Below, piece after piece: positions 2,251-25,786 of a stretch of 34,058 nt of DNA. The notes under the pieces were generated by a model that saw only the letters and a program-made list of their open reading frames with translations, searched no databases and was not told where the DNA came from. Each line of letters begins with the position of its first letter. Within the stretch, counting starts at the first letter, position 1. Source of the stretch: Candidatus Altiarchaeota archaeon (GTDB lineage Archaea; Altiarchaeota; Altiarchaeia; IMC4; QMZM01); assembly GCA_030633595.1 (NCBI GenBank), contig DAOVSE010000002.1, positions 1-34,058 of the forward strand. The letters run 5' to 3'. The position numbers were made by a program, and so were the translations under genes.

Positions 2251-2372
2251 TTTAATCCTTCTGTCTTTTGTTTTTGAGATTATACCAAGACTGTTAGGTA
2301 TTGGATTCCAGTCTAAAAAGCTGATTTTTCGAATCTTTTAAGCATGAAAAATAATAATTGTTATGCCACAGA

Positions 2373-2445
2373 GCTGGGGTGGCCAAGCTCGGTTAGGCAG
2401 TCGGCTGCAGACCGACCAACGGGAGTTCAAATCTCCCCCCCAGCT
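2373..2445 (+). tRNA. tRNA-Cys (GCA)
   Basis: Acceptor GCTGGGG/CCCCAGC, D-arm GCC..GGC, anticodon stem GTCGG/CCGAC with loop CTGCAGA, T-arm GGGAG-TTCAAAT-CTCCC, discriminator U; CCA not encoded. Confidence 0.96.
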
Positions 2446-2554
2446 AAACAACTAAGTTCAAATCCCCCATTTAAGGGCTAAGAACTAAATAATAAACGCT
2501 GTCGTATTTCCCTCTGGGAGGAATTAGCTGCTGTCTATTTCCCTGGAGGGGAAA

Positions 2555-2713
2555 ATGCCGAAAGACAATCAGAATAGAAAACAACTCGCTGTAACAATCA
2601 AGAACTTGATTGAGAGTGGATGGAAACAAAGCGAGATAGCTGAGAGTATGGGGTACAGGCATAAATCCTCGATTACGCATCTCAAAAGTGATTTCCCAGA
2701 ATTGTTTAGTTGA
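2555..2713 (+). CDS. small helix-turn-helix protein (52 aa, not in ORF track)
   Basis: Manual translation MPKDNQNRKQLAVTIKNLIESGWKQSEIAESMGYRHKSSITHLKSDFPELFS; GGAGG RBS at ~2545; HTH-like QSEIAESMGY..SSIT. Confidence 0.65.
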   Translation: MPKDNQNRKQLAVTIKNLIESGWKQSEIAESMGYRHKSSITHLKSDFPELFS

Positions 2714-2956
2714 AAGTTGAAAACATAGGGAATATATCTAAATAGTAGAGAAAGTTTTTTGATTGATTAATGCCGTAATTTGTTTATTAATACTGGGTTG
2801 GATTTTCAGAGAGTTTATAGGGTGTTCCGGTGCGAAACTAAGGCATAGGATATAGAATACCCAACATATAAACCCCTATGGAGATGGGGTTTTCGGTGTG
2901 GTAACTCTCTCTGTGCGACTTATATACTTTTTATAGATTAAATCCTATATTATAAC

Positions 2957-3104
2957 TACAAAATGCCCCCTAGTATTCCCTATTTAAAGGGGATGCTAGA
3001 TGCTTTTTTCTATTTTTCATTAACTAAAACCATATACCATTTTTATACTATAAATGTAATAATAATACAAAATGAGCCCCAGCATTCCTACGGGGATGCT
3101 GGAC
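2957..3104 (+). ncRNA. two direct repeats (109-bp period) each with a stable hairpin; candidate structured ncRNA upstream of the NYN gene
   Basis: TACAAAATG leader at 2957 and 3066; stems CTAGTATTCCCT/AGGGGATGCTAG (2970-2999) and CCAGCATTCC-TACG-GGGATGCTGG (3079-3102) with a compensatory change. Confidence 0.55.
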
Positions 3105-3123
3105 GTCCTTCTTATCTTATACT

Positions 3124-3696
3124 ATGATGGAAAATACTTCTGTTTTTATTGATGGTGCTTATTTATCCAAGATTGTGGATCACTTCTTTGAAAAGCGACC
3201 ATCGTTTAGAATTGATAAATTAGCCAGTGAGTTGGCTAAACGAGAGAATTTATGGTGTGATAGCATCCACTATTATACCGCCCCCCCGTACCAAAGCCCT
3301 ACTCCGACTCCTGAGGAAATAAAAAAGAAAGGAGGTTACGACAAATTTGTTTATTGTCTAAGACAGATACCACATTTTTATGTGCATGAAGGCAGGTGCC
3401 AGAAATTAGATGATGGGTTTCATCAAAAAGGAGTAGATACTCTACTTACTATGGGTTTAATGAGTGCTACAACAGACGGTGATTATAGGAAAATTATTCT
3501 GCTTGCATGCGATACTGATTTTGTCCCTATCTTGAACAAAATAAGAAGAGACTATAAAATCAAAGTCATATTGTATTATTACTCAGATTTTGTGAGAAAA
3601 TCTAGGTTTTCCATGTCAAACTATCTTCTCACCGCTTGCGATAAAAAAGTCCTCTTAACGAAAGAGTATTTTCATGATGGTATTCTAGTTAAGTGA
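3124..3696 (+). CDS. NYN domain (LabA/DUF88, PIN-like) putative ribonuclease
   Basis: VFIDGAYL, HYYTAPP, QKGVD and LLACDTDFVP motifs retain the core catalytic aspartates. Confidence 0.9.
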   Translation: MMENTSVFIDGAYLSKIVDHFFEKRPSFRIDKLASELAKRENLWCDSIHYYTAPPYQSPTPTPEEIKKKGGYDKFVYCLRQIPHFYVHEGRCQKLDDGFHQKGVDTLLTMGLMSATTDGDYRKIILLACDTDFVPILNKIRRDYKIKVILYYYSDFVRKSRFSMSNYLLTACDKKVLLTKEYFHDGILVK

Positions 3697-3846
3697 TTAT
3701 TTCTCTTTAGCCTCTTCCAGCTCCAGATTCCCCCGCTCATTAAACATGACCTTCAACACTTGGCCTTTACTCCATTTCTTAGCTTCCACGATCTTTTTTG
3801 GCACGGTCAGATAGTATTGTCCTTTGTTGGTTTGCTGCAATTTCAT
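3697..3846 (-). CDS. AbrB/MazE/SpoVT-like DNA-binding protein (49 aa, not in ORF track)
   Basis: Manual translation MKLQQTNKGQYYLTVPKKIVEAKKWSKGQVLKVMFNERGNLELEEAKEK has the swapped-hairpin signature; ATGA overlap with the stop of the upstream gene. Confidence 0.8.
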   Translation of the reverse strand: MKLQQTNKGQYYLTVPKKIVEAKKWSKGQVLKVMFNERGNLELEEAKEK

Positions 3847-4343
3847 TTTATTTTTGTAAGGTTATCCTTTGATTCGAGGCGCATGTCTGGTTTGCTCTGT
3901 ATGAGGTGTGTGATGTGTCTTATTCCAACATCATCAATGAGTTTAAATGCTAAAAGAGCTGCAAGAACCATTATAACAACCCCCCACCCATCTATGAATA
4001 CACCAATGCAACTGAGTACCATAGTCGCAACAACAGGTAGACCCACAGACAGAGAAATTTGAAGAAGGGACATTAGTACATCTCCTTTTCCATCCTTATT
4101 GAAACCCTCAGAGAGAGCATTTTCCGCTTCTGAATTCACATCAGCTATGACAAGAAGCACCTTTCGTGTATAATGCTCACTCTCCTCAAGGAGGTTCATC
4201 AGTATCGTTCTTTCACCTGCAAGTAGCTCAGAAGCAACCTGTACATCCATCTTGGTTAAATGACGTCCTCTGAAATTTTCTGCTCTTTTGTACCAGCGAT
4301 CTCTGTAATCTAAAACTTCTTTGGGGATTTCAGGCGTTTCCAT
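3843..4343 (-). CDS. hypothetical membrane protein with two C-terminal TM helices
   Basis: 166-aa ORF with hydrophobic hairpin ISLSVGLPVVATMVLSCIGVF / WGVVIMVLAALLAF; translationally coupled to the AbrB-like gene. Confidence 0.65.
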   Translation of the reverse strand: METPEIPKEVLDYRDRWYKRAENFRGRHLTKMDVQVASELLAGERTILMNLLEESEHYTRKVLLVIADVNSEAENALSEGFNKDGKGDVLMSLLQISLSVGLPVVATMVLSCIGVFIDGWGVVIMVLAALLAFKLIDDVGIRHITHLIQSKPDMRLESKDNLTKIK

Positions 4344-4687: not shown

Positions 4688-6142
4688 ATGACATCCCAGA
4701 TAATGAAGATAGTGATCTTCCTGGGGGTTATTTTCATTCTAGCATTTGCACTATTTTCCCTGATATTTGATTTGTTTGTTTATCCTGAAACAGCAACTAC
4801 AATAACAATTCCAACCAGCACAAGCACAACTACAAGTATTGTAAGTACAACAACTACATCTACTACAACAACGCAGACCACAACTACAACAGCCACAACA
4901 ACTGCCACAAGCACGTCTACAACAATTACAGAGCTGATACTAAAGGGCGTGGAAACTGTTGAGTACTCTGGATATGGATTAAATTTGAACAATATTGTGT
5001 CTACCAGTGGAGGGGATAAGTATTTAATTAGCATAAAAACGCCCGATGGAGCTACTGACGAAGTAGAGTTTTACGATAAGTTCGTTATAGATAATCTTGA
5101 GTTTGGAATATTAGAAAGGTATGGTGGGCTTAGCGTGAAGATCTATGTAAGGGACTATGATATTGCTACTTCTAGGGCGCCAAAACATTCAAAGATAATC
5201 ACATTGGGTGGGAAAAACTTTTTCTTGTTTGAAAGAACATTTATAGACTATAAATTCAAGTTGCACGGTAGGAAATTACACATCCAGAAACCTAATGGAG
5301 ATACAGACTCTTATGACATGCCTGACAACGGGAGTATAGTAGTGGATGATCTTGAGATTGGCGCTCTTCAATACAGTTATCCTAGTGGTTATACAGCGAT
5401 CTATATAAAATCATCATATGATTTCGAATTTTCCAATTACCTGAAAAGTGGGACATACAATAATATTCATAAAACTTTCGGAATATCATCGGAGGGGATA
5501 GACCTACTTGAAAATCCAGCACATTATATGCAGGAGAGAGATGGACCATTTGTATATTCCGTCGATGTCGGTTATATCCCGATGCAGGATATTTATGAAA
5601 ATGAAACGCTTGTCGATCTTGAGTGGAGGGGAAAGATACTGTTTGCTGGAGAGGAATTCTATGTTATGGATATTGAGGATGATACCATATATCTGGTAAA
5701 AGGCACGATAAGAGGGATAAACAATCTAAGATTTTCTAGTTCGTACTCAGGATATGAATTCAAGGCAAAGGGGTTATCATATAACCCTGAAGGTGACATA
5801 TCCAATATGTCCCTACTGATTCAAGATCCCGATGATCAAGAATCTTGCATTGTTTTGTATCCTAATCAGATCTCAATAATAGATGAGTATATCAGAATAC
5901 AGCCAATAACTGCATATAAGGAGAGAGGGGTTATAAGAGCGGATATATTCATATACGATCTATTCCCATTGGCCGTGTTGCAGAACGGTCAATCCATTCC
6001 ACATAAACCACAGTGGATAATTAAATTTGGGACAGTAGAACAACCATTCGGTGAAGATATGAATGTTGAAGAATACGAAAATATCACTAAAGGTCAAAGG
6101 CTCTTGGCAAATATTACCATCATACGACGTGAAAGGGTATAG
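4688..6142 (+). CDS. membrane-anchored surface protein with Thr-rich linker and S-layer-like C-terminal region
   Basis: N-terminal hydrophobic anchor, poly-Thr/Ser stalk; KILFAGEEFYVMDIEDDTIYLVKG resembles euryarchaeal S-layer protein segments. Confidence 0.6.
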   Translation: MTSQIMKIVIFLGVIFILAFALFSLIFDLFVYPETATTITIPTSTSTTTSIVSTTTTSTTTTQTTTTTATTTATSTSTTITELILKGVETVEYSGYGLNLNNIVSTSGGDKYLISIKTPDGATDEVEFYDKFVIDNLEFGILERYGGLSVKIYVRDYDIATSRAPKHSKIITLGGKNFFLFERTFIDYKFKLHGRKLHIQKPNGDTDSYDMPDNGSIVVDDLEIGALQYSYPSGYTAIYIKSSYDFEFSNYLKSGTYNNIHKTFGISSEGIDLLENPAHYMQERDGPFVYSVDVGYIPMQDIYENETLVDLEWRGKILFAGEEFYVMDIEDDTIYLVKGTIRGINNLRFSSSYSGYEFKAKGLSYNPEGDISNMSLLIQDPDDQESCIVLYPNQISIIDEYIRIQPITAYKERGVIRADIFIYDLFPLAVLQNGQSIPHKPQWIIKFGTVEQPFGEDMNVEEYENITKGQRLLANITIIRRERV

Positions 6143-25383: not shown

Positions 25384-25384
25384 T

Positions 25385-25657
25385 GGTGAACGCGTCCGGA
25401 AGTGGAAATATCTCCAGGATACTGGCTGCCTGAGTTCCTTCTCGTTTCCGCTACCCCACCAGCACCACTCTTTATAGTTAGGGCTGCTCCCGCCAAGGCC
25501 TGACCCGATTCCTACAGAGAGCGATCCGGCGAGACGAAAATTCATAGTTGAAAACCCAGACCAATACCCAGTTGATAGATCGCCTCCCAGACTTCGACCT
25601 CCCCGTAAGGACGATTTGAGATTACAGAGAACGCCCAACCCTCCGGCCTAGTTCACC
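25385..25657 (-). ncRNA. ffs: signal recognition particle (7S) RNA
   Basis: Terminal pairing GGTGAAC/GTTCACC; Alu-like 5' TAGGCCGGAGGGTTGGGCGTTCTCTGTAA; helix 8 GGGT-CAGG-CCT-TGGC-GGG-AGCA-GCCC with GAATC asymmetric loop; TATAAAA upstream. Confidence 0.88.
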
Positions 25658-25786
25658 GTTAGAATATGGAATTTTATAGCTAAATATTGAAAAACCCTTA
25701 AAATTCGTTCAGAATAGCCTCGAAATCTATCATATATTTATATGCGAAAAGACTATATTGTTATCTATAATTGTAATTAATCGAGA

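Follow-up and report, generated by a model that had tools for sequence, protein, structure and literature searches.

A conserved promoter, start codon and RNA hairpin unit precedes NYN genes in archaea

The closest described systems

Type III toxin-antitoxin (TA) systems have as antitoxin an RNA array of 34–36 nucleotide (nt) repeats that form pseudoknots. The stretch of DNA analyzed here (the window, 34,058 nt in length) is from contig DAOVSE010000002.1 of a Candidatus Altiarchaeota archaeon and displays two repeats directly upstream of an open reading frame (ORF) for a protein with an NYN domain. An earlier note on this DNA read the locus as a type III TA-like system of tandem hairpin repeats and a ribonuclease (RNase). 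The repeats are copies of a conserved unit that comprises a promoter, a start codon and an RNA hairpin, and that precedes an NYN gene in archaea of many phyla. The unit probably holds a potentially harmful NYN enzyme in check.

ToxIN, CptIN and TenpIN are type III systems (Blower et al. 2012, PMC3401426). Similarities of the NYN locus to such systems are a structured RNA directly upstream of an endoribonuclease gene, a promoter shared by the two, a terminator-like U run that is often found between the RNA and the nuclease gene, and a setting of defence or abortive infection. The differences are in both the protein and the RNA. The type III toxin has a ToxN fold, whereas the protein here has an NYN (PIN-like) fold (Pfam gives NYN only; Foldseek gives 2qip and MARF1). 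The type III RNA is a repeat array, whereas one hairpin is the rule here. In addition, the RNA of the NYN loci is predicted to begin with a conserved AUG, within a frame that ends at the nuclease start. What stands of the type III TA-like reading is the conserved covarying RNA, the RNase and the TA-like setting; the tandem repeats and a ToxN-type fold do not, and neither the toxin fold nor the repeat array permits assignment to the type III family.

The closest tested analogue found is the AbiF/RCd22 RNA (abiF motif) of a Clostridioides difficile prophage. RCd22 is reported to be a 5′ RNA motif of the gene for a toxic RNA-targeting protein, with a role in cis and in trans and direct RNA-protein contact (bioRxiv 10.1101/2025.04.15.648962). 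The RCd22 RNA carries two motif copies, as does the window. However the AbiF protein is an Abi_2, HEPN-like protein of a bacterial host and not an NYN protein of archaea. The Rfam abiF model does not match the NYN hairpin, and coupling to an upstream ORF is absent from the available part of the AbiF/RCd22 description.

In the hok/mok/sok type I TA locus, translation of the toxin needs an overlapping leader ORF, the start of which is limited by RNA structure. The NYN loci are similar in that a leader ORF overlaps the start of the toxin candidate (the stop is within 5 nt in 21 of 59 loci; in the window this is upstream ORF 1). Unlike hok/mok/sok, the common NYN arrangement has no antisense RNA, and a convergent unit is found just in loci L019, L023 and L024. 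The toxin of hok/mok/sok is a membrane peptide, whereas here it is a 190 amino acid (aa) RNase candidate with a predicted archaeal leaderless-type start.

Leader or operator hairpins that serve self-regulation are found in the E. coli rne and rnc leaders, in the MS2 coat-protein operator and with Regnase-1, which acts on its own mRNA. As in those cases, there is a hairpin close to the start codon or at it, and binding or cutting of this hairpin by the product of the same mRNA would give negative feedback. The NYN hairpin differs in that it is also present as a stand-alone unit and before other genes, and binding by NYN is putative. Type I restriction-modification loci can harbour embedded cassettes, among them PrrC-type RNases. 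Nine loci are comparable, with NYN between hsdS and hsdM on the same strand; the window locus, unlike these, has no restriction-modification genes.

In the study of Payne et al. (bioRxiv 10.1101/2024.01.29.577857) the NYN-domain candidate HEC-09 did not protect against the phages that were tested, and its description, in the part available, mentions no RNA element, unlike the NYN loci here. Prokaryotic NYN proteins (PF01936/COG1432) are listed as "function unknown" in the accessible part of a survey of the PIN-like superfamily (PMC5499597). No paper linking NYN to an RNA motif or RNA antitoxin in archaea was found in full-text searches of the literature, nor was the hairpin motif itself, although supplementary files could hold such data.

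A covarying RNA hairpin upstream of NYN genes

The two window copies are direct repeats 109 bp apart, as the earlier note had described them. A repeat finder gives one pair at positions 2948–2979 and 3057–3088 (75% identity, spacing 109) and a second pair at positions 2989–3000 and 3092–3103 (92% identity, spacing 103). The parts common to both copies are a TATA-like tract, the word ACAAAATG, a C-run, a hairpin and a pyrimidine-rich tail (Table 1). The ACAAAATG word contains a shared ATG, at 2963 in copy 1 and at 3072 in copy 2. The compensatory changes that had been claimed are exact, i.e. U2971-A2998 corresponds to C3080-G3101 and U2974-G2995 to C3083-G3098. The UACG tetraloop of copy 2 and the TATA-like tract before each copy are also found where they had been placed, and copy 2 is indeed close to the NYN start, with the stem end 21 nt 5′ of the NYN ATG at 3124.

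The copy 1 hairpin has a minimum free energy of −19.0 kcal/mol (z = −4.1 against shuffled sequences) and scores 46.7 bits with a covariance model termed R1; the corresponding values for copy 2 are −19.6 kcal/mol, z = −2.5 and 58.8 bits. The antisense strand of both copies folds no better than shuffled sequences (z = −1.1 each). The genome of the window (1.22 Mb in 99 contigs, 41% G+C, 88.75% complete) has the hairpin motif at just two sites by regular expression and by covariance model, and both are in the window. A genome-wide hairpin irrespective of NYN, which the note had named as evidence that would speak against its proposal, is not seen in this genome.

Model R1 was built from 19 hand-picked motif copies, and pairing statistics were obtained from 49 sequences in an alignment fitted to the model. 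Pairing holds in 99.0% of cells compared with 85.4% in shuffles, and six of the ten hairpin pairs vary on both sides. The number of doubly changed cells is 81, vs 31.6 ± 5.6 in shuffles, and none of 500 shuffles reaches it. In slid controls at most 51% of cells are paired. RNAalifold applied to a plain MAFFT alignment gives the identical ten pairs, six of these with compensatory changes. U-G pairs are retained at two positions, in 28 and 44 of the 49 sequences, which indicates that the RNA strand is the NYN sense strand.

The consensus of the motif is AAYAUGnnCCC-YRGYRWUCC-UACG-GGGWYRCYRG-AUG, followed by a U-rich tail. Base identity is kept at several pairs, C14-G80 in 49 of 49 sequences, G17-C77 in 48 and the wobble pair U21-G73 in 44. 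The stem is flanked by AUG triplets, on the 5′ side in 48 of 49 sequences and on the 3′ side in 39. Retention of base identity in addition to pairing suggests recognition by a protein. Three other features of the motif were considered and rejected. A kink-turn or tandem G-A pairs in the flanks do not fit by eye on an alignment, as there is no conservation at the base that follows the 5′ AUG and the bulge of 3 nt would be on the wrong strand; a CAU:AUG closing helix does not, as the base before the AUG is variable while the 3′ G is constant; and mimicry of a Shine-Dalgarno or anti-Shine-Dalgarno sequence by GGUGAUC does not, as a position flips from A-U to U-A in about half of the sequences. 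With Rfam 15 at gathering scores the window matches tRNA and signal recognition particle (SRP) RNA alone, and the hairpin motif has no match. At E-values up to 10, window positions 2700–3200 give three chance-level matches (E 1.1–9.3) that are far below gathering.

A protein-pattern scan of species-representative genomes gave a first sample of 46 NYN loci. A second, independent sample consists of 401 genomes of another phylum, and a metagenome scan with the RNA pattern alone gave 103 matching stretches, of which 80 were taken as loci. Most loci are from metagenome bins and related loci are not independent; redundancy was reduced only by an 85% leader-similarity filter. The 46 loci carry the labels Woese-, Pace-, Nano-, Iain-, Micr- and Parvarchaeota, Altiarchaeota, Thermoplasmata, Methanomassiliicoccales and Methanosarcinales, and one is from a bin labelled Dehalococcoidales.

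Model R1 finds the hairpin at 45 of the 46 loci. The sole exception is L044, where the NYN match begins only at residue 30. At six loci with distant NYN paralogues the same model finds no hairpin (0/6). NYN is present in 26 of the 401 genomes of the second sample. All 22 strong NYN matches there (E 1e-56 or better) have the hairpin upstream on the same strand, whereas weak or broken NYN matches have it at one of six loci. The covarying hairpin that the note had recommended looking for upstream of NYN homologues is therefore present in both samples (45/46 and 22/22 loci), and we regard it as all but certain that the motif is real and linked to NYN. Several NYN copies have internal stops. Among relatives of the window NYN is found in 5 of 61 genomes, and it is absent from all 21 further genomes of the family to which the window belongs. 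One relative, G026, displays the motif followed by ATGATGG... and then by a run of N.

In five whole genomes each motif match precedes an NYN gene, and in one of these three matches precede three NYN paralogues and the hairpins have diverged. Of the 80 metagenome loci, 56 have NYN adjoining the motif by tblastn, 54 of them downstream on the same strand, one divergent and one convergent. L077 has a more distant NYN beside the motif (Pfam) and L102 has an NYN start at the contig end (by eye). About six of the 80 have too little flanking DNA to judge, and eight carry the hairpin inside an element derived from TnpB. Viral contigs scanned with the motif pattern gave no matches.

One hairpin per NYN gene is the rule, and two copies are found in the window and in L011 only. 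Tandem repeats as a trait of the system, which the note had proposed, are thus not borne out. In the window a separate TATA tract precedes each of the two copies, which are spaced by 109 nt and do not constitute an array of short units. From the stem end to the NYN start there are 15–95 nt in most loci. This leaves no space for a second promoter, and the hairpin must therefore belong to the NYN mRNA.

The window ORF matches Pfam NYN (PF01936) with E = 6.3e-12 and 46.6 bits, above the curated cut-off of 24.2, and the NYN gene that had been noted downstream of the repeats is thereby confirmed. The AlphaFold2 model of the protein has a mean pLDDT (predicted local distance difference test) of 95.3. 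Foldseek matches of the model are 2qip (E 2.3e-8; TM-scores 0.64 and 0.73) and the MARF1 NYN domains 6fdl and 5yaa. By sequence, a single-sequence search of the PDB gave no match and a sequence profile gave only 2qip (E 0.012). The core Asp residues are kept, as had been said; D10, D105, D130 and D132 are invariant in 41 aligned homologues, and by analogy with the family as described in the available part of PMC5499597 they would form the metal site. The PADLOC models NYN (PDLC01154) and HEC-09 (PDLC04163) give weak partial matches, E 2.2e-4 to 9.5e-7.

Table 1. Features of the NYN locus in the window
Feature	Position	Strand	Remarks
TATA-like box, copy 1 (TTTATAGA)	2930..2937	+	read from sequence; begins 33 nt 5′ of ATG 2963
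TATA-like box, copy 2 (TTTATACT)	3042..3049	+	read from sequence; begins 30 nt 5′ of ATG 3072
Hairpin, copy 1	2970..2999	+	stem 2970–2981 / 2988–2999, loop 2982–2987
Hairpin, copy 2	3079..3102	+	10 bp, stem 3079–3088 / 3093–3102, UACG loop
T6 and T5 runs after copy 1	3004..3017	+	possibly archaeal oligo-T terminator or attenuator
Upstream ORF 1, 54 codons	2963..3127	+	begins at conserved AUG of copy 1
Upstream ORF 2, 26 codons	3072..3152	+	begins at conserved AUG of copy 2
NYN-domain ribonuclease-like gene, 190 aa	3124..3696	+	Pfam PF01936

A proposed start cassette, the upstream ORF and alternative explanations

A TATA-like box is found within 45 nt upstream in 83 of 129 motif instances, and in 43 of these 83 it begins 31–32 nt before the conserved AUG, which is the modal distance. 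The usual archaeal spacing between TATA box and start puts the transcript start 1–3 nt before this AUG. A transcript of the leaderless type, starting 1–3 nt 5′ of the AUG, is therefore predicted.

The conserved AUG opens a short frame that runs through the hairpin. Since the motif itself holds UGA in both other frames, the frame test counts the first stop after the hairpin. In the AUG frame this stop is no more than 5 nt away from the NYN start at 32 of 86 loci, compared with nine in the +1 frame and four in the +2 frame; for the 59 non-redundant loci the numbers are 21, two and four, respectively. Exact overlaps of stop and start (of the UAAUG, UGAUG or AUGA kind) are found in 16 of the 86 loci. 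Of 50 non-redundant loci, 35 have an AUG frame that remains open over the variable tail. When the tails are shuffled the number is 23.4 ± 2.9, and it does not exceed 32 in any of 1000 shuffles. In L120 there are 215 nt from the AUG to the NYN start, and the stop nonetheless overlaps the start. In the window, upstream ORF 1 crosses copy 2 and its TGA (3125–3127) overlaps both candidate NYN ATGs (3124 and 3127), while upstream ORF 2 terminates 26–29 nt within NYN in a different frame. As the AUG frame runs through the hairpin to the NYN start, the element appears to be primarily a translated 5′ terminus of the NYN mRNA.

Several loci show variations on this arrangement. The AUG is in frame with NYN in L047, L053 and L033, thus the hairpin encodes the N-terminus there. 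L101 and L135 have no separate NYN start codon by script, and the NYN frame is the AUG frame. L122 has an in-frame fusion of the AUG to a different ORF. A variant cassette (40.5 bits) in L168, at positions 847–1546 on the minus strand in genome G031, heads an MntA-HepT operon (nucleotidyltransferase and HEPN RNase), and the stop of the upstream ORF overlaps the MntA ATG.

Oligo-T runs act as transcription terminators in archaea. A run of at least five T is found within 35 nt after the hairpin in 71 of 127 instances, whereas a control window placed 5′ of the promoter has such a run in 17 of 123. If these runs act as terminators, part of the transcripts may end as short hairpin RNAs. The T run in the window follows copy 1, not copy 2.

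The hairpin unit is found on the opposite strand from NYN in a few loci. In L010 and L068 it is divergent from NYN and has its own TATA box; that of L010, a palindrome, is apparently common to the unit and NYN, and the NYN ATG lies 26 nt beyond this box. A convergent unit is found in L019 (identical to L075), L023 and L024, where it begins immediately downstream of the NYN stop and likewise keeps a TATA box of its own. These units speak for an additional RNA role that does not depend on being the NYN leader, and a role of the hairpin RNA in trans is possible from this minority of loci.

We lean towards the following explanation, and with moderate confidence only: the unit is a portable start cassette in a defence-island setting, in which a hairpin-gated and probably leaderless upstream ORF is coupled to translation of NYN. 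The cassette would consist of the TATA box, a transcript from 1–3 nt before the conserved AUG, and a 10-bp hairpin at +8 to +31. Ribosomes starting at the AUG would read the short ORF through the hairpin and end on or near the NYN start codon; synthesis of NYN would thus be coupled to ribosomes that first melted the hairpin. The hairpin and the frequent oligo-U run would keep down the output of a potentially harmful NYN ribonuclease. Translation of the upstream ORF and its coupling to NYN are likely. Since specific bases are kept and separate transcription units exist in some loci, the hairpin is probably also bound or cut by a protein. The most likely partner would be NYN itself, which would give self-repression in cis and titration or neutralization in trans. 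NYN as the partner of the hairpin is a tentative suggestion, about which we are nearly evenly divided but inclined to doubt. A wider role, in which the hairpin would be an RNA partner dedicated to a PIN-like (NYN) toxin and serve both as translational gate and as free-RNA neutralizer, seems unlikely; such modules would form a new class of RNA-controlled RNases across archaea and would often be inside type I restriction-modification operons, as a back-up by abortive infection.

Several observations weigh against a start cassette coupled to NYN. About ten of the 80 metagenome loci, with enough flanking DNA to judge, have other genes or no genes nearby and no NYN. Genome G031, which is 93% complete, has the cassette and is without any PF01936 gene, and G116, in a sample of 151 genomes, has an orphan motif copy approximately 280 nt before a helix-turn-helix (HTH)-nucleotidyltransferase gene. 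Thus the hairpin can persist, and perhaps work, without NYN. The ORF stop is more than 10 nt before the NYN start in 14 of the 59 non-redundant loci and many DPANN loci have their own GGAGG before NYN, which shows that coupling is not universal. In the subgroup L048–L055 the predicted transcript start is separated from the conserved AUG by an additional small hairpin (GCAAUCUUCGGAUUGUGA-like), and in the TnpB-derived elements a 5′ stem precedes the AUG; in these cases the AUG is not 5′-terminal. The covariation counts come from a model-fitted alignment, which is biased towards structure, and the control for T runs is crude, with one upstream window per locus. The transcript start, translation of the ORF and termination at T runs are predictions, and gating by the hairpin, toxicity of NYN and its binding or cutting of the hairpin are putative.

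The foremost alternative is a type III-like TA arrangement, in which hairpin RNA is released, perhaps by cutting at the flanking AUG triplets, and binds and neutralizes an NYN toxin. A stop in transcription, e.g. upon infection, would then lead to decay of the RNA and free NYN. Some of the architecture agrees with this, as the structured RNA is directly upstream of the RNase gene with one promoter, AUG triplets are conserved on both sides of the stem, and T runs, including the T6 and T5 runs after window copy 1, could yield an excess of short RNA. Hairpin units with their own promoters, divergent or convergent to NYN, are also compatible with a free RNA, as are the defence-like setting and the genomes with several paralogues and diverged hairpins. 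In the loci examined, NYN of this subfamily is always found with the hairpin save for the N-terminally truncated match L044, while orphan hairpins do occur. A precedent is AbiF/RCd22, where, in the accessible part of the report, a 5′ RNA motif neutralizes a toxin in cis and in trans (bioRxiv 10.1101/2025.04.15.648962). However the typical locus has a single hairpin and no repeat array, and the fold is NYN and not ToxN-like. The frame is kept open to the NYN start, which a pure antitoxin does not need. The hairpin always moves with the promoter, and this alone is enough to explain why NYN is never without it. In addition the cassette heads the MntA-HepT operon in G031, a genome without an NYN gene. 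An antitoxin role of the hairpin RNA is possible, but a type III-like system as such is improbable.

A leader that acts independently of any protein is somewhat less probable again. Here the hairpin and U run would be an attenuator, a 5′ stabilizer or a translation brake on mobile or defence genes. The enrichment of T runs after the hairpin fits such a leader, and so do the cassettes before other genes (MntA-HepT in G031 and the in-frame fusion in L122), the motif inside TnpB-derived elements and the absence of NYN from G031. On the other hand, a plain terminator or stabilizer does not need the base identities and both AUG triplets that are kept across phyla. Window copy 2 and the copy in the TnpB-derived elements have no T run, and the opposite-strand units keep the motif though they have no downstream gene to regulate.

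That the repeats encode a small functional peptide (MxPS/G-I/V-PTG...), with RNA pairing as incidental, is very improbable and this explanation is rejected. The AUG is conserved, the first 11 codons look similar among sequences in which the span is 31 nt (37 of 49), and the window copies have five differences at third codon positions and an indel of 6 nt. However, synonymous third positions covary to keep pairs (columns 15/79, paired in 49 of 49), and radical amino acid swaps (Val/Asp; Ser/Gly with Leu/Pro) track the base pairs. In 9 of the 49 sequences the span is 29 nt instead of 31 nt and the frame is shifted within the loop, and the peptides are 7 to 55 codons in length with unrelated tails. 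As swaps follow base pairs and the frame shifts in the loop, it is the RNA and not the peptide that is selected.

A DNA-level element, i.e. a recombination site, a transposon end or an operator palindrome, might be suspected from the motif inside IS605/TnpB-derived elements and the patchy distribution of NYN, but is equally improbable: G-U pairs are tolerated on one strand only and the antisense folds like shuffles, the position between TATA box and NYN start is fixed, the motif in TnpB-derived elements is an internal insert and not the end hairpin, and the viral-contig scan gave no matches.

Genomic setting and significance

An HsdM gene is within 1.5 kb in 13 of 99 NYN loci, and in nine of these NYN is directly upstream on the same strand. 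Other recurrent neighbours in the 99 loci are HsdS (seven), a Bro-N protein (seven), an HTH-nucleotidyltransferase (five) and a HicB-like antitoxin (three). The recurrence of HsdM, HsdS, Bro-N, nucleotidyltransferase and HicB-like genes supports a defence- or TA-like setting. A conserved protein neighbour as antitoxin was considered and rejected, which agrees with the earlier note: no neighbour family is found in more than 13 of the 99 loci, and the small ORFs that flank the window cassette are without relatives (the three have no tblastn match in any other locus). The patchy spread, multiple paralogues, decay and embedding in restriction-modification loci fit a defence or toxin-like gene and not a housekeeping gene.

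In L052, L072, L079, L086, L091, L104, L114, L125 and L141 the hairpin and NYN are inserted between hsdS and hsdM of a type I restriction-modification locus, with the NYN end 0–20 nt from the hsdM start on the same strand. In L134 a nucleotidyltransferase pair occupies the slot between hsdS and hsdM.

A gene-free element of approximately 350 nt that is derived from TnpB is found in L069, L081, L088, L126, L127, L129, L142 and L143 (e.g. L129:4781–5134) and is 81%–89% identical between contigs. Its order is an end hairpin, TTTATAAAT, the 5′ stem, the NYN-type hairpin motif and the 3′ portion of a TnpB-associated RNA scaffold that ends with GCATGTCAC. The element has no match in Rfam. L126 has in addition a full TnpB gene with a matching scaffold. 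The motif AUG is apparently in frame with the last ~45 codons of TnpB. Three of four alignment gaps are multiples of three (18, 3 and 3 nt), and one copy has a 4-nt insert.

In the window, a tRNA-Cys(GCA) gene lies just upstream of the cassette (2372–2446, plus strand) and is followed by a 52-aa ORF (2555–2713, plus strand) that has a helix-turn-helix-like stretch and no Pfam match; these two may be the border of an inserted island. A link of the NYN loci to tRNA genes or integration sites was considered and rejected. ARAGORN shows tRNA genes in 8 of the 46 loci and one in the window, which did not look enriched. In L108 (~637–705) the motif is directly after a sequence that resembles the 5′ half of a tRNA (acceptor, D arm, anticodon stem). 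Rfam finds no complete tRNA there, and the sequence could be a split or intron-bearing tRNA, or chance.

Downstream of NYN and convergent with it is a two-gene unit (3697–4343, minus strand) in which the genes overlap by 4 nt. One gene (3843–4343) encodes a 166-aa protein with a hydrophobic C-terminal half, and the other (3697–3846) is a 49-aa ORF with an AbrB/SpoVT-type swapped-hairpin look by eye; neither has a Pfam match, nor a relative at the other loci. Further on is a gene (4688–6142, plus strand) whose 484-aa product has a membrane segment at the N-terminus and a long stretch of low complexity that is rich in Thr and Ser, and the sole Pfam match of this protein is weak and below threshold (New_glue). 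The archaeal SRP RNA is at 25384–25658 on the minus strand (Rfam RF01857, 136.7 bits).

These results provide one archaeal NYN subfamily with a specific RNA companion that covaries, and with a control logic that can be tested. The motif is present in records labelled as archaea of at least six groups, including many DPANN lineages, for which to our knowledge almost no regulatory RNA has been described. At ~75 nt the cassette is small and portable, and reporter tests of it should be easy. Should the upstream ORF be translated, archaea would offer here a clear example of leaderless initiation that is gated by a hairpin and has termination-reinitiation coupling. If NYN binds the hairpin, it would represent an RNA-neutralized PIN-like toxin, of which no description was found in the literature searched.

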